Origin: a virus
Lineage: Duplodnaviria > Heunggongvirae > Uroviricota > Caudoviricetes
Length of the DNA stretch: 22,567 nucleotides
Virus record (IMG/VR): IMGVR_UViG_2537562194_000013
Strand: one strand, 5' to 3'
The translations under genes and the position numbers were made by a program. How positions within the stretch are numbered: position 1 is the stretch's first letter; every line of letters starts with the position of its first letter. Shown piece after piece: positions 1,130-9,832 of this stretch. The notes beneath the pieces were generated by a model that had not been told where the DNA came from, made no database searches, and was given only the letters and a program-made list of their open reading frames with translations.

Positions 1130-1161
1130 GACCGGTTGAGAAGTTACTTTGCATACCATTA

Positions 1162-1517: not shown

Positions 1518-1957
1518 TTGGCTGGGGTGTATGCGCTCTTGCGTTAGCCTTAGCCGATCGCTATTTGCTAAAACGCAAGGACATCACGCATTTAGAACTT
1601 GGTGATGTGGAAATTAAACCGGGTTTCATCCGGGTGCCGTTCAAATACCGGTCTAAATTCCCGTTTTTGCGCGGCGCAACGGTCAGATATTGGATCCGCG
1701 ATGTTCAGAAGCCAACGACAGTGATTGAAGGCGAACAACGTTGTCTGACGTCGGCTGAACAGGGCGAAAACAGTGAATGGTTGTACATACCCACTGAATA
1801 TATGGGTAAAGGAGAACGGCTGTGGCATTTCAACGTCATGGTTACGCATGGCGACTCGTTCATTAACCCGTTGTATCGGATTTTCCCTGTTACTCAGCAA
1901 ATCCGCAGAAGTTACGTAATAAATCTCGCACAGGATGTGTCAGATGACGAAAAATAA
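1514..1957 (+). CDS. lydB: LydB (holin antagonist in the P1 dar operon)
   Basis: 147 aa. The start ATG overlaps the lydA stop (ATGA at 1514-1517) and follows GGGAGG. It has an N-terminal hydrophobic segment. Identification is by position and size relative to lydA and darA. Confidence 0.6.
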   Translation: MIGWGVCALALALADRYLLKRKDITHLELGDVEIKPGFIRVPFKYRSKFPFLRGATVRYWIRDVQKPTTVIEGEQRCLTSAEQGENSEWLYIPTEYMGKGERLWHFNVMVTHGDSFINPLYRIFPVTQQIRRSYVINLAQDVSDDEK

Positions 1958-2546
1958 GTATGCAACGGTCGATTTTGACCAGGTTAATGAAAAGGGGCTG
2001 AAATCCCTTATCGCGGCGATCAATAAAACCGGTGTTACGGTAATTGAGGTTGACTCCAGCAACCGCGCAACAACGAAAGATGGCGTTAAAGTTAAAACCG
2101 CAAAGCTGGTTCTTAACGACGGACAAATTCTTGCCATACAGGTAAACGATACTGGCGATATATCGTCTGTGAGGCTGAATGGAAAAGCTATTCCTAACGC
2201 TCAGTCGCCGGATATCAAGACGCTTGGTACCGTCATGGGGCAAGCGGCCCGCAAAAACTCCGCAAAATTCCAGAAATCACTGATCGCCAAAGCGAAACGT
2301 GTTGCCAATCCGGTAGACAAGAAACCGGCAGTAAAATCCAACTTTCAGCGCCTGCAAGAGGCAAAACAGCGGAATGCTCAGGTGGTTGCCGCTTATAAAT
2401 CAGCGCAGAACTCGGTGTCTTTCAATCAACAGCAGATCACTGATTTGCGGGCGAAGCTGGATAAGGAGACAGGCCGACTCAATAACGAAAAGGCCCGAAA
2501 TGGCGAACTCAAACGCCGTCTTAAGCAACTGAAAGCAGGAAATTAA
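1944..2546 (+). CDS. hdf: Hdf (homolog of DarA fragment), with a coiled-coil C-terminus
   Basis: The ORF is open from 1935; I prefer ATG 1944 (MTKNKY...), which has AGGA 9 nt upstream and overlaps the lydB stop. The protein shares a block with the downstream DarA ORF (KNSAKFQ motif followed by a K/Q/E-rich coiled coil), and the underlying DNA is repeated at 2254-2274 and 3151-3171. Confidence 0.7.
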   Translation: MTKNKYATVDFDQVNEKGLKSLIAAINKTGVTVIEVDSSNRATTKDGVKVKTAKLVLNDGQILAIQVNDTGDISSVRLNGKAIPNAQSPDIKTLGTVMGQAARKNSAKFQKSLIAKAKRVANPVDKKPAVKSNFQRLQEAKQRNAQVVAAYKSAQNSVSFNQQQITDLRAKLDKETGRLNNEKARNGELKRRLKQLKAGN

Positions 2547-2547
2547 C

Positions 2548-4467
2548 ATGGAACAGTTCAATATCAATAAAGGGGTGGCGATCAAGCCTGGGCTTGACGT
2601 GCTTCCCCCGCCAGTGACTGATGATGAATATCGCGCATTAATGGCCGGTGAGGACCGCTATCTGATGACGGAATCCAACACCCTGGAGGAAATCGAGGCT
2701 ACGTTCTTCTATGACACGCCGATCCACTGGTGTGCTACGGATTTACTGGAGGCGATTAGTTCTACTCGTTTGCAGCTACACCGGACCATGCAGGCATTTG
2801 TCCGGGCATTGAACCAGAAGCTGAATGGTACCGGAATCTCTGCGGGGAGTGATAAAACGGGGGACGTGGCCCAGAACGGTGCACGCGCGATCGGCGGGGC
2901 TGAAATTGGCCGGGCGCGTAACGTTAACGGGCTGCCGGTTCTGCCAGCCATTATTCCGCTCAGTGATGGTCAGACTATCAGCATTCTGTTTCATAGCCCG
3001 ACAGCGGAAAACCGGATCACCAATAGCGATACGCTGATTGCTTTCCAGTTCTTACTGAATAAAAAAGACGTTACTCATACCGTTGCTCCGATGAGTGGAC
3101 GTGATATGACGCTGGCGCAGGTCACCATGAAACTTGCCAACCTTGCAGAGAAAAACTCGGCAAAATTCCAGCGTGCGCAGAAGAAGAAAAAAGCCCTGGT
3201 TGATGAAATAACCCAACTACAGGCTGACAGTGACCAGAAAGAGGATGCCATGAGCGACCTCGCGGATCAGGTGGCAGCGGTAGAAGGCCAGAAGGCAGAT
3301 CTGGAGCAGAAAATTAACGTGGTTGCTTCGGAAGCGGATTCTCTTTATCAAGAAAATGAGCGTTTGCAGGCGGAGATTGATCAGCTCAATCGCACTGGTG
3401 GGCGCGATACCATTGCTCCTGCGGGGATGACTGGTGGGCACTCTCGCGCGCTGACGGATCGCCTTGCCAGTATCAAAAATCGTATGCATATGGACGGGGA
3501 AGCGACGCTCAGTAATGGTGCATCAATGAAGCAATTCATTGGGGATGGCGAAGGGTATATCCAGTTAACCGATCCGGATGGCAGCGTATACATGATCAAG
3601 GCTAAATCCATACAGGGTGTGGACATGGCAGAAGCGATCGGCAAGCTGTTTAAAGCCTATAAAGCGGGTAATGTATCGGAATATCTGGTCCAACCAGAAG
3701 AACATAAACCGGAAAACGTCGAACCTGAACCAGCGGAGGATACCGGTAGCTCTTCGCCTGAACCAGAAGTCTCTGTAGGTGCATATCGATATGCCCTGCA
3801 AATGCGTCCGGCGGCCCCTGGCGCAATACCTGAAGGTAACAAAGCAATTCTGCCGCGCCCTGATGAAGGTGACCCGTATTATGAATATGCACGCTACGGC
3901 ATTGCTACTTACGATACCCCGCTTTCTGATCAGCAAATGAGTGAGTACGACCTGAAGTTATTGCCTCGCGAGGATTCTTTCGACTTCCTGGCGAAGACAC
4001 TTACTAATGGTCCGTTTGGCAAATATGCACAAAAAGCTCTGGAGCTGGCCACCAGCTCACCAGACGAGTTCCGCGTAATGCTGAAAACTCAGTTTCAAAA
4101 AACTTTCCCCAATATTGCGTATCCGGGGGGCGCTGGCACCGAGAAAATGGTGCAGAGCATGATCAATGCATTGCAGGCCGAAGTCGGTGAGATTACTCAG
4201 CCAGAACCGGCCCCGGCACAGCCTGATGAAACGGTTAGCGAAGCAGATGCAGAGGCTAATAAAGCCATTGAATATCTCAATAACGTGATGGATATGCAAA
4301 GCACTGACATGGCGGAGATCCGTAACGCCCGGGGCAATGTCCGGGAAGCGATTGCAGCCCTTCAGGCTGCCGGACGTTTTGAGGAAAACGAAGAGCTGGT
4401 TAACGGCGCAGCTCGCCACCTGGCTGATCTGCTGGTAGCAATCCAGAAAGCGGGGGTAGCGGCATGA
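2548..4467 (+). CDS. darA: DarA (defence-against-restriction protein A precursor; head internal protein)
   Basis: 639 aa. ATG at 2548 follows AGGAA and sits 1 nt after the hdf stop. Size and position match P1 DarA. It has a central coiled coil and an acidic Pro/Glu-rich segment (PEEHKPENVEPEPAEDTGSSSPEPE). Confidence 0.85.
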   Translation: MEQFNINKGVAIKPGLDVLPPPVTDDEYRALMAGEDRYLMTESNTLEEIEATFFYDTPIHWCATDLLEAISSTRLQLHRTMQAFVRALNQKLNGTGISAGSDKTGDVAQNGARAIGGAEIGRARNVNGLPVLPAIIPLSDGQTISILFHSPTAENRITNSDTLIAFQFLLNKKDVTHTVAPMSGRDMTLAQVTMKLANLAEKNSAKFQRAQKKKKALVDEITQLQADSDQKEDAMSDLADQVAAVEGQKADLEQKINVVASEADSLYQENERLQAEIDQLNRTGGRDTIAPAGMTGGHSRALTDRLASIKNRMHMDGEATLSNGASMKQFIGDGEGYIQLTDPDGSVYMIKAKSIQGVDMAEAIGKLFKAYKAGNVSEYLVQPEEHKPENVEPEPAEDTGSSSPEPEVSVGAYRYALQMRPAAPGAIPEGNKAILPRPDEGDPYYEYARYGIATYDTPLSDQQMSEYDLKLLPREDSFDFLAKTLTNGPFGKYAQKALELATSSPDEFRVMLKTQFQKTFPNIAYPGGAGTEKMVQSMINALQAEVGEITQPEPAPAQPDETVSEADAEANKAIEYLNNVMDMQSTDMAEIRNARGNVREAIAALQAAGRFEENEELVNGAARHLADLLVAIQKAGVAA

Positions 4468-4829
4468 CACTATCAGCTATTGAGTTAATGGATCTCAGCG
4501 ATAAGTTGGATGCTCTGATGTCCAAAGCGGCTACCGCGAGTGGTATGGAGTTGCTGGATATCAGCGATGAAATTGACCAGATCATGCAACAGATGGGGTA
4601 CGGCGCGTCTGGCGGCGGTAGTGGCGAGGAGAAACAACCTTCGGAACATGATGGTGTGCCAAAACTGGTTGCTGATTTCCTGGCTGATAAATTCGTCGAT
4701 CAGAGCACCGATGCATTTATCGGTACCTTGCAGGATTTGAGTCAATATGTTGGCACATACATCGACCTGGACCAGGTTAAACAGCACACGGCGGCATGGA
4801 TAGCCGCCAACATTGAAGAGGCAGCATAA
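4464..4829 (+). CDS. ddrA: DdrA (small dar-operon protein)
   Basis: 121 aa. The start overlaps the darA stop (ATGA at 4464-4467). Position and size match P1 ddrA. Confidence 0.75.
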   Translation: MTLSAIELMDLSDKLDALMSKAATASGMELLDISDEIDQIMQQMGYGASGGGSGEEKQPSEHDGVPKLVADFLADKFVDQSTDAFIGTLQDLSQYVGTYIDLDQVKQHTAAWIAANIEEAA

Positions 4830-4841
4830 GGCGTAACAGGG

Positions 4842-7829
4842 ATGAGCTTAAGCGATCAGGTGGTAATGGCCACCAGCATAGAAACGCTGATCGAGCTGCT
4901 AAAGAACCTGCCCGATTATGGGCGGGTTTCGTATGTGGTGACAGCGAAGGGAGACGAGGTAAAAACAGCGTTTGATATCGTCGATGCCTCAGCTCTTTTG
5001 GTATCCAATACTCTGGATGGGAAAATTAATCCAGACTATCCCCAGGAACTTCAGCCGCGCGACCGGACCCGCGCATCCAGCCTTCTTCAGGTCAACCAGA
5101 TATCCAAGGATTTGCGTCCTGCCCAGCTTACCGATTCCGGTTTATCCAGCCATGGCGCGCCAATAATTGGTGAGGACAATGCCGTTGAGTCAGGTAATGG
5201 GCGGACCATGGGGATCATTAAAGCCTATCAGGACGGTAATGCGGATCGGTATCGGGAGTACCTGATTGAACATGCGACCGAATTCGGCATACGGCCTGAA
5301 AAGGTTGAATCAATGACGGCTCCGGTACTGGTGCGCCGCCGGTTAACGACGGTTGACCGTGTTCAGTTTGCCAAGGACTCAAATATTTCTGATCTCCAGG
5401 AAATGGCAGCCAGTGAAAAGGCTTTTGTTGATGCCGACAGCATAACACCGGCGATGATGGCGCTTTTTAACCCGTCAGAAAGCGGAGATCTGCTTAGCCG
5501 CAGTAATGACGCGTTTATTCGCGGATTTATGACGCAAGTTGGTGCCACACAGGCGGCTGGCCTTGTAACTGAAGATGGGCGACCAACACGGCAACTTGTT
5601 GACCGTATACAAAACGCGATCTTTGCCAAGGCATATAAGGATGCGCGCCTGGTAAGGATGGTTGCAGAAGAACCTGATCCGGATATGCGTAATGTTCTGA
5701 CGGCGCTTAATGCGGCAGCCAATGATTTTGTCCAGATGCAGGCTTTATCAGGAGAAGCGCACAAGCAGGCTGTGACAACCATTGTTGATGGTATTGAAAC
5801 AGCGGATAGCCTCGATAAAAAGGCGCTGGCGGCATTGAAAGATGCGGTAGACCTGGTAAGGCAATCGAAGGAGTCAGGCCAACATATTACCGATGTTATT
5901 GCTCAGGGGGATATGTTCAGCGAAACGGCCCCGGAAGTGAAAGCACTCGCGTTGTTCATCGTCGCGAATAACCGTAGCGCGAAGCGTATGGCCACCGCCT
6001 TTAAGTTGATGGCGCAACGTATCAATGATGAGTTACAGCACCAGGGCCAGGCGCTGGGGGATATGTTTGGCGGCGGCGATGTGTCGTTACAGGATATCCT
6101 TCGCCAGGTGTCTCAGGAACTGGAAAACGAAGGCATGCAAGGGATATCCGGCGGTCTTTTCGAGTCCGTTTCCGGCGGTAGTTACAACGGTGTTGCTCCG
6201 TATACCAGTTTGCTATTACATCGGGCATCCGGCATCAAAGACATTATTCATCTGATCAGGCTGCTTTCCCGCACAGATCCCCAGGATGAACAGCTTGTAC
6301 AAGTGCTTGCGCATTTTGTTCGAATGCCTGTTGCCGACGTGAAAAAATGGTGCCGATTATTCGGTATCAGCAATTCGTTACTTCGCGGCTTGTTAAATCA
6401 CGCATCCTCCCTTGGGCGCGATGGCTTTGACGAGATAGCGCAGGCGATAAAAAACGGAGATATGCCACCAGCTATTGACTGGTTTTCCATTCGCCCAACC
6501 AGGGTGAAAGCATTCCTTAGCGCGGCGCATTCGGCATCACCATTGGCAGAAATGGTTCAGAGGTTATCGCTCATATTCACAGACCATACCGCGTTGGGTG
6601 ATCTGACTCTGGACGAGATGAAGGAAGCCTCCATTCAGTGGGCCGATCAACAAAATGAGGTTAACTCAGACTTCTTGCCAGCATTCAGGAAGGCCGTTAG
6701 TAAAGCGGATGATGCCCGTGGAATTCTGAAGGCATTTAAGGCATTGCAAAGTCGTGTTAATAAACATGTCGGTGATATCGATGGGGTAACGGAGGAAGGC
6801 CGGGATATCCTTAAAGATCACGGCATAACGCCAGAGTTTATTGATGAGATCAGGACTGATATGCAGCGTGAGGTCGTATCGTCCCTGCAAATCGTAGCCA
6901 GAGCGTTGGCGGATGCTAATCCGAAGAGTGCGGCCATTGTTAACCGGGTTATTGGTGATATAGAAGCATCGGAGGGCATGGGGGCGCTGAAACTCTTCCT
7001 TTCGCGAGCGTTTAATCCTAACGGCAATATTCTCCCTGGCATTATTGGTGAGGCTAAAAAGTATGTCAGTGAAGAAGAACTTGAGCAGCTTGACCAACTA
7101 CTTAAGCGATTCTCATATAACCCGCAGACACGCTGGCAAATGAATCAGCGAAGTATGGGTTCGGTCCACGAGAAAGTGTTATCTGCCATGAACAGTGCGA
7201 TCGCAAACTCATCCGTATCTGAAGAAAAAGCTCTTGAGTGGGCCGACTCTTTTATCACAGAAGAAGTGGAAGAAGCCCGCGCTGGACAGAATGGTGGGAT
7301 AGACCTGCGCAAGGAACTTGCTGATATTTATCGCCTGACCGGCGGGAAAATATCGACCTTATCAAAGGTAGTTCACCACCAGGGAAGGGCATATGCAAAT
7401 CTAAATGGTGTTGTTGCTGTCAATTTGAACGATAAAAATGCAAGTGCACTGTGGCACGAGCTGGGTCATCATCTTGAGTACAGTAACCCTGGTTTGTTAG
7501 AGAAAGCCCGGTCATTCCTGAAGGCCAATGTTGAAGGGGATAAGCCATCATTCGTCAATATCGGTGGGCGTGGCAAGCCTGAATGGTGCTTCAGATCTCG
7601 ATTGAGTAATATTTATATGGCGAAGGTATACCCGCCAGCCTCAGTAAGTAATTCCGGGAAAATTCGGCAGAAATCACCGACTATTTCCAAAACGTCAGCA
7701 ACGGAAGTATTCTCTATGGCTCTTCAGTTGTATCATGACAAAGAGGCCGCTGCCGCATCACTGATGAATGGTGACGGATTGCTGGAACTGTTATTAGGTG
7801 TGGCAAAGGAGCTAAATAATGCAGATTAA
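4842..7829 (+). CDS. ddrB: DdrB (large dar-operon protein)
   Basis: 995 aa uninterrupted ORF immediately downstream of ddrA. Size and position match P1 ddrB. No catalytic motif was recognised by eye. Confidence 0.85.
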   Translation: MSLSDQVVMATSIETLIELLKNLPDYGRVSYVVTAKGDEVKTAFDIVDASALLVSNTLDGKINPDYPQELQPRDRTRASSLLQVNQISKDLRPAQLTDSGLSSHGAPIIGEDNAVESGNGRTMGIIKAYQDGNADRYREYLIEHATEFGIRPEKVESMTAPVLVRRRLTTVDRVQFAKDSNISDLQEMAASEKAFVDADSITPAMMALFNPSESGDLLSRSNDAFIRGFMTQVGATQAAGLVTEDGRPTRQLVDRIQNAIFAKAYKDARLVRMVAEEPDPDMRNVLTALNAAANDFVQMQALSGEAHKQAVTTIVDGIETADSLDKKALAALKDAVDLVRQSKESGQHITDVIAQGDMFSETAPEVKALALFIVANNRSAKRMATAFKLMAQRINDELQHQGQALGDMFGGGDVSLQDILRQVSQELENEGMQGISGGLFESVSGGSYNGVAPYTSLLLHRASGIKDIIHLIRLLSRTDPQDEQLVQVLAHFVRMPVADVKKWCRLFGISNSLLRGLLNHASSLGRDGFDEIAQAIKNGDMPPAIDWFSIRPTRVKAFLSAAHSASPLAEMVQRLSLIFTDHTALGDLTLDEMKEASIQWADQQNEVNSDFLPAFRKAVSKADDARGILKAFKALQSRVNKHVGDIDGVTEEGRDILKDHGITPEFIDEIRTDMQREVVSSLQIVARALADANPKSAAIVNRVIGDIEASEGMGALKLFLSRAFNPNGNILPGIIGEAKKYVSEEELEQLDQLLKRFSYNPQTRWQMNQRSMGSVHEKVLSAMNSAIANSSVSEEKALEWADSFITEEVEEARAGQNGGIDLRKELADIYRLTGGKISTLSKVVHHQGRAYANLNGVVAVNLNDKNASALWHELGHHLEYSNPGLLEKARSFLKANVEGDKPSFVNIGGRGKPEWCFRSRLSNIYMAKVYPPASVSNSGKIRQKSPTISKTSATEVFSMALQLYHDKEAAAASLMNGDGLLELLLGVAKELNNAD

Positions 7830-8133
7830 AATCGCAGCGCCATTAGGCGGAGATGCCATTATCGAATTTGATGATAATGAAGAAGTTTCCGGGCGTTTAA
7901 GCATTATCTCCGGTGACATTACCGAGGACATGATCGCTGAAGCCATAGCTGGGGCAAATCCCAATAGCTATATGGGATTCGTTAACACCCTTGATGCTCC
8001 CGCAAGTGATGTTCTCCGAACGCTGCATCTTTACGCTGGCTGGTTTGTTGATTGGCCAGCAGTAGAGGGTGGCGATGAGGACGACGATGATGACGATGAT
8101 TTTGGGGATCATGTAGACCAGATCGTATATTGA
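7819..8133 (+). CDS. Small, very acidic protein with a poly-Asp C-terminal tract; last gene of the dar operon
   Basis: 104 aa. ATG 7819 has AAGGAG 7 nt upstream and overlaps the ddrB stop, so it is translationally coupled. It has about 25 Asp/Glu against 3 Lys/Arg and ends EGGDEDDDDDDDFGDHVDQIVY. A strong terminator follows directly. Confidence 0.7.
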   Translation: MQIKIAAPLGGDAIIEFDDNEEVSGRLSIISGDITEDMIAEAIAGANPNSYMGFVNTLDAPASDVLRTLHLYAGWFVDWPAVEGGDEDDDDDDDFGDHVDQIVY

Positions 8134-8137
8134 AGAA

Positions 8138-8164
8138 ATCCCGCCAATCGGCGGGATTTTTTTT
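8138..8164. terminator. Rho-independent terminator between the convergent dar operon and the ssb operon
   Basis: 8-bp GC-rich stem (ATCCCGCC / GGCGGGAT), 4-nt loop, then a run of 7 T. It follows the stop at 8133 on the plus strand and overlaps the stop of the minus-strand gene at 8163. Confidence 0.85.
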
Positions 8165-8951
8165 AATCGCTTTCCACTTCTTCCGTGGTGTTTTCTTGCA
8201 GTTCTGTTAATGCAGCACGACATAGGTTCCGGGCATTGGATATAGCCACACTTTTGACTTCATCCGTCATCGTGCAGGTAATGTACTGATCGAGTTCTTC
8301 AGCGCGGATGATGCTTTTGCCAATCAGAAACTGTATTTGCCAGAGCAGATCGGCATCCATAATCAGAATTTCTGCCGGGCCTTCAGGGCCAGCCGGGAAG
8401 GAAACATAAGACTGTTTGCCCAGGCCGATAACTCGACAACTTGCTTCAAGAATTGCGCGCTTGAGGTCTGACTTTGTAACTGAAACAGGTTGATTTTCAC
8501 CTGCGATTACGCCGTTGACATGGATGTGGAAGGGCATGTAGCTTGAAATTCGCTCTACTTTCCATACGCCAGCAAGCGATCCTTCATGCAGCACAATGGG
8601 GGTAACCGCGAGTTTCATCTCACCATATAACTGCTGGCAGATAACTGGATTACTGAATACATCCAGAGGTTCACACTCAAACAGCGGCGCAATCTGCATG
8701 AGGTCCATCATGGTCATACCAGGGGTACGAGCAGTAATGAATCTGCGCATTCCAGTATCCATTGTGCGCCAGATAGCTACACCATGCTTTTTGCTCACTT
8801 CTTCAGTAAAGCCAAGGTGGCACATGATGGTTTTTTCGATAGCCAGATCAGAGATCGAAACCTTTTCGCCAGGCACACCATCATTATTGATGGTCACTTC
8901 GACACTCTGACCATTACGCAGGCGGTATTGAATTGCTTTAGTATTTTCCAC
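8163..8951 (-). CDS. Hypothetical protein (262 aa), last gene of the ssb operon
   Basis: GTG start at 8951 with GGAG 9 nt upstream; it begins 6 nt after the upstream gene's stop. Acidic C-terminus (ELQENTTEEVESD). No recognisable motif. I am not aware of an intact counterpart in P1, which as I recall carries an IS1 insertion around this position. Confidence 0.65.
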   Translation of the reverse strand: MENTKAIQYRLRNGQSVEVTINNDGVPGEKVSISDLAIEKTIMCHLGFTEEVSKKHGVAIWRTMDTGMRRFITARTPGMTMMDLMQIAPLFECEPLDVFSNPVICQQLYGEMKLAVTPIVLHEGSLAGVWKVERISSYMPFHIHVNGVIAGENQPVSVTKSDLKRAILEASCRVIGLGKQSYVSFPAGPEGPAEILIMDADLLWQIQFLIGKSIIRAEELDQYITCTMTDEVKSVAISNARNLCRAALTELQENTTEEVESD

Positions 8952-8957
8952 GTTAAA

Positions 8958-9635
8958 TCACTCCACTACAAACCAGTCACATGCCAGTAAGTCGCCTACA
9001 GAAGGAACCCACGGAACAACTACACCTTGTGCATTTTTTAAGGCGAAATAAGCACCATACGGAACGAGGTCGCCGGGGAAATATCCCTTAATGGCTTCCA
9101 TTCGTGCCGGGTACTGTCCTTCAGGAACCAGCCAGCAGAATTGGTTTTCGCCGTTCCACCCGCGTCGGGCAACTTTCTTGCCATCCTTCAGCCACATCAG
9201 CGCGTCAGAAAAGTCGGCTGCTTCAAGGTCGATTTCTTCTTGTAGAGTAGCGATACCGCCAGCAGAAATAGTTACGTCCCTGGCTGTAATGAATGTCACC
9301 CCATTGTGACCTTCAATGCTGAGCGATACCCCATTTTCGAAGAAGTCGTTAGTCCGACTAAAGCCTTCTTCAAATGTTTTTTCTGGTGAATAGGACAGAG
9401 ATCCGTCCTCATAAGCGACCAGATATCCGCCAATTTCTGGTCGGTGTTTTTGCAAAAATATTTTATCAACATGGACTTTTACCCCTTCTGGCTCAACGAC
9501 TTCGATGTTGCAAAAAAGGACCACATCCATTAGGGCGATAATTTCGATATCTTTGATTTTTGAGGCGCGAACTGTTTTATGGCTTTTGTATTTTGGAAGT
9601 GCCGTCAAAAGCTCTTTCGTTGTCATGTTATTCAT
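8958..9635 (-). CDS. Two-domain protein with a C-terminal DUF2829 (Tad2-like) domain
   Basis: I prefer ATG 9635 (MNNMTTKELL...), which has an AGAGGA ribosome-binding site, over the track start at 9803. The C-terminal ~80 aa (FSDALMWLKDGKKVARRGWNGENQFCWL...VVVPWVPSVGDLLACDWFVVE) fits the DUF2829 signature as I recall it: ALK-GKK-RR-GWNG, then PW-PS--DLLA-DW. The N-terminal ~140 aa is unrecognised. Confidence 0.7.
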   Translation of the reverse strand: MNNMTTKELLTALPKYKSHKTVRASKIKDIEIIALMDVVLFCNIEVVEPEGVKVHVDKIFLQKHRPEIGGYLVAYEDGSLSYSPEKTFEEGFSRTNDFFENGVSLSIEGHNGVTFITARDVTISAGGIATLQEEIDLEAADFSDALMWLKDGKKVARRGWNGENQFCWLVPEGQYPARMEAIKGYFPGDLVPYGAYFALKNAQGVVVPWVPSVGDLLACDWFVVE

Positions 9636-9832
9636 AGTCTTTCCTCTGCTTAAAACCTGATGTATTGCGCCTTCAGGTGGGTCAGGAATGTTTTCCCACC
9701 AGCGAACGCAATATCTCGGGGTGTTCTTTTCGTGAAAAGCGCGTGCCATTGCCAACTTTGGCGTTTGTTTGCGAGTTCGTGCTTTTGTCGGCGTCTGGAC
9801 CACCGCTTTTCTTTCAGTCGTTTTTTACACAT

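Follow-up and report, generated by a model that had tools for sequence, protein, structure and literature searches.

Hxr of P1-like phages: a small acidic protein encoded in an invariant pair with ddrB and a possible partner of DdrB

The strongest signal in our data is an invariant two-gene module in which hxr, a small gene for a highly acidic protein, follows ddrB at the end of the late Dar (defence against restriction) operon of P1-like phages. Our leading explanation, which is tentative and falls somewhat short of probable, is that the two genes form a conserved cassette whose second half, Hxr, serves DdrB as a dedicated partner and chaperones or restrains the C-terminal metallopeptidase region of DdrB during virion assembly. 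P1 Dar is a textbook case of virion-delivered antirestriction proteins, and current descriptions of the system list six proteins and omit hxr, although its linkage to ddrB is as tight as that of any operon pair.

Gene identity and composition

The window, a 22,567-nucleotide stretch of viral DNA (IMG/VR record IMGVR_UViG_2537562194_000013), contains at positions 7819-8133 on the forward strand an ORF that starts with ATG, encodes 104 AA, and ends with TGA (8131-8133), just as given in the preliminary description, where it was not confidently recognised as a named P1 gene. It is in fact hxr of phage P1 (P1_gp021, YP_006490; PHROG 2292), and the phrog_2292 profile matches residues 1-104 of the window protein with E = 6.1e-61. 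The window and P1 proteins are about 96-97% identical, and the genes share the same place after ddrB, the same overlap with it, and the same ribosome-binding site. They differ in the Asp run, which has five residues in P1 and seven in the window allele, in three substitutions (N56D, A81V, and E83D, with the window residue given first), and in the neighbour 3' of hxr, which is an isaA-like gene in the window, as in SJ46, and isaB/IS1 in P1. The gene is already named and has never been studied: our literature search returned no experiment on hxr itself, and the only phenotype found was non-essentiality under CRISPRi, where hxr was dispensable for plaque formation like all other genes of the Dar system (PMC10695390).

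Hxr has 25 acidic residues (18 D, 7 E) against three Lys or Arg, which confirms the earlier count, with a pI of about 4.05 and a net charge of -22, or -21 per 100 AA, the highest acidity among the products of the window's 16 genes. The run of eight Asp that had been described is one residue too long; the longest pure run is seven (D88-D94) and lies within nine consecutive acidic residues, D86-E87-D88 to D94 (positions 8074-8100, forward strand), that comprise eight Asp and one Glu. This stretch is written in mixed GAT, GAC, and GAG codons, and its length varies in frame among otherwise near-identical genomes. In the intact tracts of 78 near-identical IMG/VR copies the pure Asp run spans 4-9 residues, reaching nine where Glu87 is also Asp, and the reading frame is intact in all 78 readable copies despite these changes in length. 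Two of the IMG/VR copies carry an Asn that interrupts the run.

Operon context

The late promoter LPdar (1141-1159, forward strand), which matches the annotated P1 promoter exactly, -22 and -10 elements included, drives lydA-lydB-hdf-darA-ddrA-ddrB-hxr. The gene is the final cistron of this late Dar operon and a terminator follows it directly, which bears out its previous placement as the last gene of an antirestriction operon. The terminator (8134-8165) is an intrinsic one with a GC-rich 14-bp hairpin and a U8 tract; it was missed by a simple consensus scan and revealed clearly by folding (-21 kcal/mol, z = -4.6), and it is probably bidirectional, serving the convergent isaA-like gene as well. 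Hairpin-like sequences also occur 3' of hxr at three other loci (L004, L005, and L007).

The hxr start codon (ATG, 7819-7821) precedes the ddrB stop codon (TAA, 7827-7829), and the two genes overlap by 11 nt (7819-7829, forward strand). A strong Shine-Dalgarno sequence, AAAGGAG (7805-7811, forward strand), lies within ddrB codons 7 nt before the ATG, and AAGGA(G/A) stands at the equivalent position in nine of the nine diverged loci for which the junction sequence was read. The overlap and the strong ribosome-binding site had both been described correctly; the translational coupling to ddrB claimed along with them is suggested by the overlap alone. Folding of the mRNA around the hxr start revealed no structure hiding the ribosome-binding site (z = -0.7) and no hairpin that would enforce coupling, and with a ribosome-binding site that is strong and unstructured, translation of hxr need not depend on ddrB.

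Conservation of the ddrB-hxr pair

The ddrB gene (4842-7829, forward strand) encodes a protein of 995 AA with an N-terminal DdrB-type ParB domain (PF18763, E = 1.3e-39), a C-terminal HExxH zincin metallopeptidase (H872), and a basic stretch, seen in the charge profile, at about residues 896-955. Both the domain assignment and the processing of the protein have been reported; DdrB is cleaved to about 76 kDa ahead of packaging, with its own C-terminal metallopeptidase as the proposed agent (PMC5512222).

In P1, in the window, and in nine further diverged loci where Hxr identity ranges from 29 to 62%, the hxr start codon falls within the terminal part of ddrB. The two genes share 11 nt in P1 and in seven of the nine further loci (L004, L005, L007, and L100-L103); the overlap lengthens to 14 nt in JK004 and to 17 nt in L104. 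The gene 3' of hxr changes from locus to locus (a RelE/MqsA toxin-antitoxin pair, CHAP-domain, Arc-like, DUF905, porin, and isaA-like genes, and IS1), and in L102 the ddrB-hxr pair sits after ssb, away from darA and ddrA, with both the pairing and the overlap retained. Hxr is encoded by 504 PLSDB plasmids and the C-terminal domain of DdrB by 511, and the counts per genus match between the two sets; the CDS over hxr is mostly labelled "hypothetical protein". The only hxr copy found without ddrB (L003) has a TTG start and still retains the last 25 ddrB codons upstream, and was rejected as a free-standing gene in favour of a decayed remnant. The two proteins also diverge alike at the same loci, with about 31-37% identity for Hxr and 33-36% for the DdrB C-terminal domain.

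An exhaustive HMMER search returned only about 20 Hxr clusters, and all those for which we retrieved the genomic context lay in a P1-like element. Homologues keep their length down to about 30% identity, and length together with motifs is kept down to 29% identity across several genera. Values of dN/dS for unsaturated pairs were 0.14-0.16, indicating purifying selection, and because these values are low, homologue length is conserved, and 78 of 78 copies are in frame, hxr is not a chance ORF. One family member (P0015, from L104) is a natural tandem duplication, and three database copies (P0005, P0006, and P0010) are truncated or frameshifted. No paralogy of Hxr with DdrA or Ulx was found. Weak phmmer matches to FG-GAP-type repeat proteins (P0021 and P0026-P0028) involved a GD(I/V)T..(I/V)A..(I/V).GA stretch and were judged to be compositional and not homologous.

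Predicted structure

An AlphaFold2 model built from 19 family sequences, which replaced an earlier and poor one from six near-identical sequences (pLDDT 62.6), predicts a globular core at residues 1-82 (7819-8064, forward strand) with a core pLDDT of about 85, a β-β-β-α-α-β order, and a net charge of -10. Invariant alignment columns in the core define the motifs PNSxxGxVN, VLR(S/T)L, and WxVxWP. The core is followed by a polyanionic C-terminal tail at residues 83-104 (8065-8130, forward strand) that is predicted to be disordered, has a net charge of -12 without a single Lys or Arg, and ends in IVY; averaged in blocks of ten residues, pLDDT declines from 52 to 33 over residues 81-104, with residues 84-86 and 95-104 below 50. 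Of the 25 acidic residues of Hxr, 12 lie in this tail, which accounts for just over half of the net charge. All 19 family members carry such a tail (18-23 residues, net -7 to -13, no Lys or Arg), and the family is acidic in the core as well. Mimicry of the SSB C-terminal tip was considered and rejected, the family ending in V-N, V-Y, or I-H with no conserved Pro-Phe.

A possible role for Hxr as a DdrB partner

We infer that Hxr binds DdrB physically, and likewise which DdrB domain it contacts and in which direction it acts on the protein. A common late mRNA and an hxr start within the last ddrB codons would lead to both proteins being produced together. The α/β core of Hxr, by way of its VLRSL helix and WxVxWP motif, may dock on the C-terminal metallopeptidase region of DdrB, and the polyanionic tail may mask the conserved basic stretch beside HExxH or another nucleic-acid-binding surface. 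Consistent with such masking, DdrB residues 896-955, directly after HExxH, have a net charge of +5 to +8 in four diverged homologues, compared with -7 to -13 for the Hxr tails. Acting like an immunity protein, a trans-acting prodomain, or a packaging chaperone, Hxr would hold DdrB soluble or inactive inside the producing cell and would thereby govern both the cleavage that yields the 76-kDa form and the entry of DdrB into the procapsid; afterwards it may stay behind or be packaged with DdrB. The cleavage of DdrB before packaging is a step that would need control.

Against a partner role, adjacency and overlap show co-expression and not interaction, and DdrB is acidic overall (pI 5.5) with only a short basic stretch. 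We also know of no reported DdrB toxicity that would require an inhibitor. If Hxr does control the processing or loading of DdrB, mutations that delete or insert sequence in ddrB could have polar effects on hxr via the 11-nt overlap and, if so, published ddrB phenotypes might need to be read again.

Alternative explanations

We consider it unlikely that Hxr is instead a free anti-defence effector, a polyanionic decoy or DNA mimic that is packaged and injected with the other Dar proteins or acts late in the infected cell, and that ties up a DNA-binding component of host restriction, BREX, nuclease, or similar defences. A net charge of -22 over 104 AA at pI 4.05, in a family that is acidic in both core and tail, would suit such a protein, and both values are probably comparable to those of Ocr-class mimics. 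Hxr is like Ocr of T7 and ArdA in its small size, very low pI, and dense negative charge, and in being encoded by a mobile element in an antirestriction context; the other products of the operon are injected antirestriction proteins (PMC12810830, PMC12707154). Variation of the Asp run among near-identical genomes might suit a host-facing interface, and the tandem duplication in L104 suggests possible action as a dimer, as with many mimics. The DNA-mimic role raised in the preliminary description nevertheless found no support. The homology searches and structure prediction that it had proposed for a DNA-mimic fold were run, and Pfam, PDB-sequence, and fold searches returned no known fold and no mimic family, neither Ocr nor ArdA nor any solved DNA mimic. 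Unlike in those proteins, the charge is concentrated in the disordered tail, which carries about half of it and is unlikely to form a rigid phosphate-like array. Expression is late and not immediate-early, and a free effector leaves unexplained why hxr is never found away from ddrB. Mutants of darA and darB that keep hxr were reportedly still restricted in the work of Iida in 1987 and Piya in 2017, so Hxr alone would not block EcoK, EcoB, or EcoA. Dar protection operates only in cis (PMC12707154). Taken with those mutants, this speaks against Hxr diffusing freely and inhibiting type I enzymes in the manner of Ocr. The absence of Hxr from the published virion proteome (PMC9024508) is weak evidence against an injected effector.

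Less likely again is an internal procapsid protein, the kind of role also raised in the preliminary description, in which Hxr would serve as an acidic scaffold accessory or as a DNA stand-in that neutralises basic, DNA-binding Dar components before packaging of the genome, and would then be expelled, degraded, or kept as a minor head protein. The late operon is shared with head-internal proteins, and Hdf is very basic (+21, pI 10.3). DdrA, with a pI of 4.05, is as acidic as Hxr and is known to be packaged, so acidity is no bar to head entry. Furthermore, P1 has no identified scaffold protein (PMC9024508), and low-resolution density around DarA-Hdf is unassigned in the cryo-EM structure (PMC12810830). 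Against this role, the linkage of hxr is to ddrB and not to hdf or darA, and the L102 pair is separated from both darA and ddrA; hxr is non-essential, and the literature searched contained no hxr-specific capsid phenotype. Hxr is not among the 27 P1 virion proteins detected with at least two unique tryptic peptides (PMC9024508), which counts only weakly against a place in the head; in an in-silico tryptic digest a single Hxr peptide, at 2.3 kDa, has an ordinary size, and the remaining ones are 0.5, 4.2, and 4.2 kDa. Hxr has no clear N-terminal capsid-targeting peptide: a T4-like candidate, I-x-E16 (I-I-E16), falls within one of the strands predicted for the folded core and is not strictly conserved.

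The current database annotation of Hxr as an Xre-family helix-turn-helix transcriptional repressor is very improbable. Its sole support is the P1 annotation, which reads "possible repressor; homolog of Xre" and notes a resemblance to a phage Xre repressor (28% identity over about 58 residues), and which was copied into later records. Earlier distrust of a simple label for this ORF was justified, as the Xre-like label failed every test made here. A Pfam search with the window protein found no family at E up to 1, none of the 19 family members matched HTH_3 (PF01381) or another Pfam family of the helix-turn-helix type even with E values of up to 10 allowed, and an NCBIfam search returned no match. 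The predicted fold is mixed β/α with three N-terminal strands and not a five-helix bundle, and together with the Pfam and NCBIfam results for the 19 members it led us to reject homology to Xre. A pI of 4.05 with three basic residues in total makes specific DNA binding unlikely, and the setting is that of a late-expressed final cistron in a structural and anti-defence operon; Hxr has in common with the Xre family only its historical label and a similar length, about 100 AA. The name "Putative repressor Hxr" has been copied through phage and plasmid records and can mislead the annotation of regulatory circuits.

A non-functional, chance, or decaying ORF is just as improbable, as the low dN/dS, the conservation of length and motifs to 29% identity in several genera, the 78 intact copies, the ribosome-binding site conserved in nine diverged loci, and the hairpin-like sequences at three loci outweigh non-essentiality in the laboratory (PMC10695390) and the existence of truncated or frameshifted database copies.

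Comparison with known systems

A positional parallel in Vibrio phages counts in favour of a partner role. Certain large proteins of these phages, otherwise unrelated to DdrB, share with it only the metallopeptidase domain, and small ORFs of 87-90 AA lie directly 3' of these DdrB-type proteins, two of them overlapping the upstream gene by 4 nt (VAP7 QDB73363, misannotated as 'tetraspanin-15'; 207E48.1 QZI90498; D506 CAL9973898). Unlike Hxr, their products lack both overall acidity and an acidic tail. Homology between them and Hxr was not supported, with an hhalign probability below 1%, and the VAP7 small protein appeared only among the weak and non-significant fold matches to the Hxr model (TM 0.43-0.48, E = 1.7). 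Against a partner role, the DdrB-type metallopeptidase proteins of Xanthomonas phage Rb1, Luteimonas, and Uliginosibacterium are not followed by such a small ORF, and their C-terminal extensions of roughly 140 AA, considered as possible Hxr fusions, have no similarity to Hxr.

A broader form of the partner explanation, which we regard as doubtful, is that Hxr is an unrecognised seventh Dar component that founds a new fold-orphan family. It would act in trans as a regulatory subunit, its polyanionic tail gating the DdrB metallopeptidase and so controlling either the maturation and loading or the post-injection release of a polyvalent anti-defence protein that the virion delivers. The small Vibrio phage ORFs would then be functional counterparts, and a metallopeptidase with a small gatekeeper would be a general module of injected phage effectors.

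Close parallels for a dedicated DdrB partner are immunity proteins. The colicin DNase immunity proteins Im7 and Im9, and barstar, are inhibitors encoded just 3' of effector domains. The immunity genes of polymorphic toxins have been reviewed (PMC3482391). Hxr differs from these proteins in having no sequence or fold similarity to them and in carrying a long, disordered, polyanionic tail, and DdrB is a virion-delivered polyvalent protein and not a secreted toxin, with no known toxicity. The likeness lies in size, charge, and arrangement: Hxr is an acidic protein of only about 100 AA, its gene lies directly 3' of the sequence for an enzymatic domain at the C terminus of a large conflict protein and is co-expressed with it, and Hxr evolves at the pace of that domain. 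As with immunity or chaperone partners in general, the small gene stands directly downstream of its effector and its occurrence is strictly tied to that of ddrB.

The hxr gene and its operon

The small acidic open reading frame lies at 7819..8133 (+) of the window and encodes 104 residues. In the preliminary description it was not confidently recognised as a named P1 gene, but the window is a P1-like element that shares approximately 98% identity with phages SJ46, Ro157c2YLVW and RCS47, and the ORF is P1 hxr (P1_gp021), a gene known and named since the annotation of the P1 genome. SJ46 and further records carry the label "putative repressor protein Hxr", copied from the P1 annotation, and in the literature searched hxr appears in gene tables only. 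Knock-down by CRISPRi found it to be non-essential, as are all of the Dar genes (PMC10695390). The Hxr protein of the window is 100% identical to one encoded on the Escherichia albertii plasmid NZ_CP117623.1 (81.9 kb; hit H109), a hint as to what type of element gave rise to the window.

The earlier picture of an acidic ORF with a good ribosome-binding site overlapping the end of ddrB was borne out: the first 11 nt of hxr, from its ATG on, are shared with the end of ddrB (TAA stop, 7827-7829), and the sequence AAAGGAG at 7805-7811 is located 7 nt upstream of the ATG. The count of roughly 25 acidic against three basic residues also held (18 Asp and 7 Glu; 1 Lys and 2 Arg; computed pI ~4.05), but the reported run of eight Asp is a pure run of seven (D88-D94) within a stretch of nine consecutive acidic residues, and eight is reached by counting D86 too. 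With -21 net charges per 100 residues, Hxr is the most acidic product among the 16 genes of the window, followed by DdrA at -13. The late promoter LPdar (1141-1159), identical in sequence to the P1 annotation, is positioned upstream of lydA, and a terminator formed by a hairpin and U8 directly follows the hxr stop codon (-21 kcal/mol, z = -4.6 by folding); hxr therefore closes the late operon lydA-lydB-hdf-darA-ddrA-ddrB as its last cistron, in agreement with its proposed place at the end of an antirestriction operon. The products of this operon are strongly asymmetric in charge, with a very basic Hdf (1935..2546; +21, pI 10.3) and an acidic DdrA (4464..4829; pI 4.05, net -16). An antisense ORF of 108 residues at 7897..8223 (-), covering hxr and its terminator, was taken for a shadow ORF arising opposite the Asp/Glu-rich frame.

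Further downstream, between the isaA-like gene and ssb, an ORF of 281 residues (8958..9803 (-)) labelled just "hypothetical protein" in SJ46 has at its C-terminus a domain like that of Tad2 (Thoeris anti-defence 2; PF11195, E = 2.5e-22). The first 57 residues of P1 IsaA (320 AA; 8241..9203 of the P1 locus, L001) match the N-terminus of this ORF (86% over 65 AA), and those from 60 to 320 correspond to the isaA-like ORF of the window (95%; region compared, 8163..9803 (-)). Judged from these matches, P1 IsaA looks like a deletion chimera, and most of the Tad2-like gene therefore seems to have been deleted from laboratory P1.

Linkage of hxr to ddrB

The start of hxr falls within the final codons of ddrB in P1, in the window, and in nine other diverged loci (L004, L005, L007, L096, and L100-L104). 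Seven of the nine have an overlap of 11 nt, Cronobacter phage JK004 one of 14 nt, and L104 one of 17 nt, with AAGGA(G/A) inside Lys-Glu codons of ddrB at every locus where the junction sequence was read, and the gene 3' of hxr varies among loci. On a Klebsiella variicola contig (DAGDAP010000006.1; L102, 967-4288), ddrB-hxr directly follows ssb rather than darA and ddrA and the overlap is kept, so that ddrB and hxr travel together, independently of the remaining darA operon. Among PLSDB plasmids, 504 encode Hxr and 511 the C-terminal domain of DdrB, with matching genus counts. The ddrB-hxr pair is an invariant two-gene cassette, a result that is new here.

Only one hxr copy looked independent of ddrB, that of locus L003 (1948-2326; 62% identical), with a dinI-like gene nearby; it was rejected as such because it uses a TTG start and keeps the 3' end of ddrB upstream, being preceded only by the last 25 ddrB codons. 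This copy appears to be a decayed deletion remnant in a different element.

The Hxr family and its acidic tail

Hxr matched PHROG 2292 (function unknown; E = 6e-61), and searches of Pfam and NCBIfam returned no family. When 1.8 billion cluster representatives were searched exhaustively with HMMER, only 20 matches were found, including proteins of 96-100 AA at 36-45% identity; a profile search revealed further members on 80-96 kb contigs of Klebsiella, Citrobacter, and Rosenbergiella, and tblastn of the phage collection added the JK004 member. The family alignment showed invariant positions at G53, V65-L66-R67, L69, W75, and W79-P80 and near-invariant positions at P8, S50, V55, and N56, which define the motifs PNSxxGxVN, VLR(S/T)L, and WxVxWP.

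The core is acidic in all members (net -4 to -10), and each carries a tail of 18-23 residues of Asp, Glu, Pro, Gly, and Thr, free of Lys and Arg, with a net charge of -7 to -13 and ending in V-N, V-Y, or I-H. The conserved trait is therefore a polyanionic disordered tail, and its combination with an acidic core, described here for the first time, is family-wide. A pure run of Asp is characteristic of the E. coli P1 clade. Among the otherwise almost identical IMG/VR genomes (L009-L088), the length of this run (window 8074..8100) changes in frame from 4 to 9 residues in intact tracts, with Asn inside the run in two copies and a frameshift in none of the 78 copies read. Elsewhere, a few database entries (P0005 and P0006) are frameshifted or truncated at the Asp run. 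The metagenomic variant P0015 (184 AA; L104, 5001-5555) is a tandem duplication with two cores and the long acidic tail on the second only, and it still follows ddrB and overlaps its end.

Possible functions of Hxr

On the best-supported reading, which we advance tentatively, Hxr serves as a dedicated DdrB partner and is produced together with DdrB from the late operon. DdrB carries a DdrB-type ParB domain at its N-terminus (PF18763, E = 1e-39) and an HExxH zincin motif in its C-terminal part (H872); Iyer et al. classed it as a polyvalent protein that is cut to ~76 kDa ahead of packaging, with its own metallopeptidase domain as the probable agent (PMC5512222). The 60 residues that follow HExxH are basic (net +5 to +8) in four homologues at only 33-36% identity, and Hxr and the metallopeptidase domain have similar divergence rates. 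We infer that Hxr may bind the metallopeptidase region of DdrB, where its polyanionic tail would mask a basic surface, and that it could thereby chaperone or restrain DdrB until cleavage and loading into the procapsid.

It is unlikely that Hxr serves as a free polyanionic decoy or DNA mimic, the latter having been proposed earlier from its acidity. An AlphaFold2 model built from 19 sequences (mean pLDDT 75.7; ~85 in the core) predicted a fold that opens with three strands, continues with two helices, and closes with a short strand, followed by a disordered tail from residue 83 in which mean pLDDT by ten-residue blocks declines from 52 to 33, with residues 84-86 and 95-104 below 50. Foldseek searches of this model against PDB and BFVD gave nothing at an E of 0.001 or better, a sequence profile search of PDB gave nothing better than E = 0.2, and Ocr, ArdA, Ugi, and other DNA mimics were absent from every one of these match lists. 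As modelled, Hxr has a fold without known relatives, which is also new here. Late expression and the cis-acting genetics of Dar argue further against a free decoy, which would leave the obligate linkage to ddrB unexplained.

An acidic internal or scaffold-like head protein, the other role suggested in the preliminary description, is somewhat less probable again. In reviews and a 2026 cryo-EM study, Dar comprises six proteins that act only in cis, and density around DarA-Hdf is left unassigned (PMC12707154, PMC12810830). The P1 virion proteome, 27 proteins with at least 2 unique tryptic peptides, includes DdrB, DdrA, DarA, Hdf, DarB, and Ulx and not Hxr (PMC9024508), but this absence is weak evidence since Hxr has three tryptic sites yielding in silico peptides of 0.5, 2.3, 4.2, and 4.2 kDa, the last very acidic. 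DdrA equals Hxr in acidity by pI, and thus acidity alone does not distinguish Hxr from the known packaged Dar proteins.

The annotated Xre-like repressor is highly improbable, as none of 19 diverse Hxr members matched any helix-turn-helix family, even at E values up to 10, and the Xre fold was rejected since it is all-alpha and the predicted model mixes strands and helices; that the repressor annotation is unsupported is likewise new here. A non-functional ORF can be dismissed with similar assurance, hxr being a real gene with a dN/dS of 0.14-0.16 (Nei-Gojobori; non-saturated pairs) and intact in every one of the 78 readable, near-identical IMG/VR copies. The remaining probability belongs to mechanisms beyond those named.

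For the reading of Hxr as a DdrB partner, a positional parallel comes from Vibrio phages (VAP7, 207E48.1, and the D506 group), where relatives of the DdrB metallopeptidase, 25-30% identical, form the C-termini of otherwise unrelated large proteins. Immediately after each is an ORF of 87-90 AA (L095, 4759-5031; L097, 3699-3962; L098, 3567-3830), two of which overlap the upstream gene by 4 nt. The VAP7 ORF was independently among the weak BFVD fold matches to the Hxr model (TM 0.43-0.48, E = 1.7); it is misannotated as "tetraspanin-15". Profile-profile comparison found no sequence relationship between Hxr and these small ORFs, which unlike Hxr are not acidic, and the parallel is a lead, not evidence of homology. 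The metallopeptidase homologues of Xanthomonas phage Rb1, Luteimonas, and Uliginosibacterium have instead a C-terminal extension of ~140 AA unrelated to Hxr. As a dedicated partner of DdrB, Hxr would be comparable to immunity proteins or to prodomains that act in trans.
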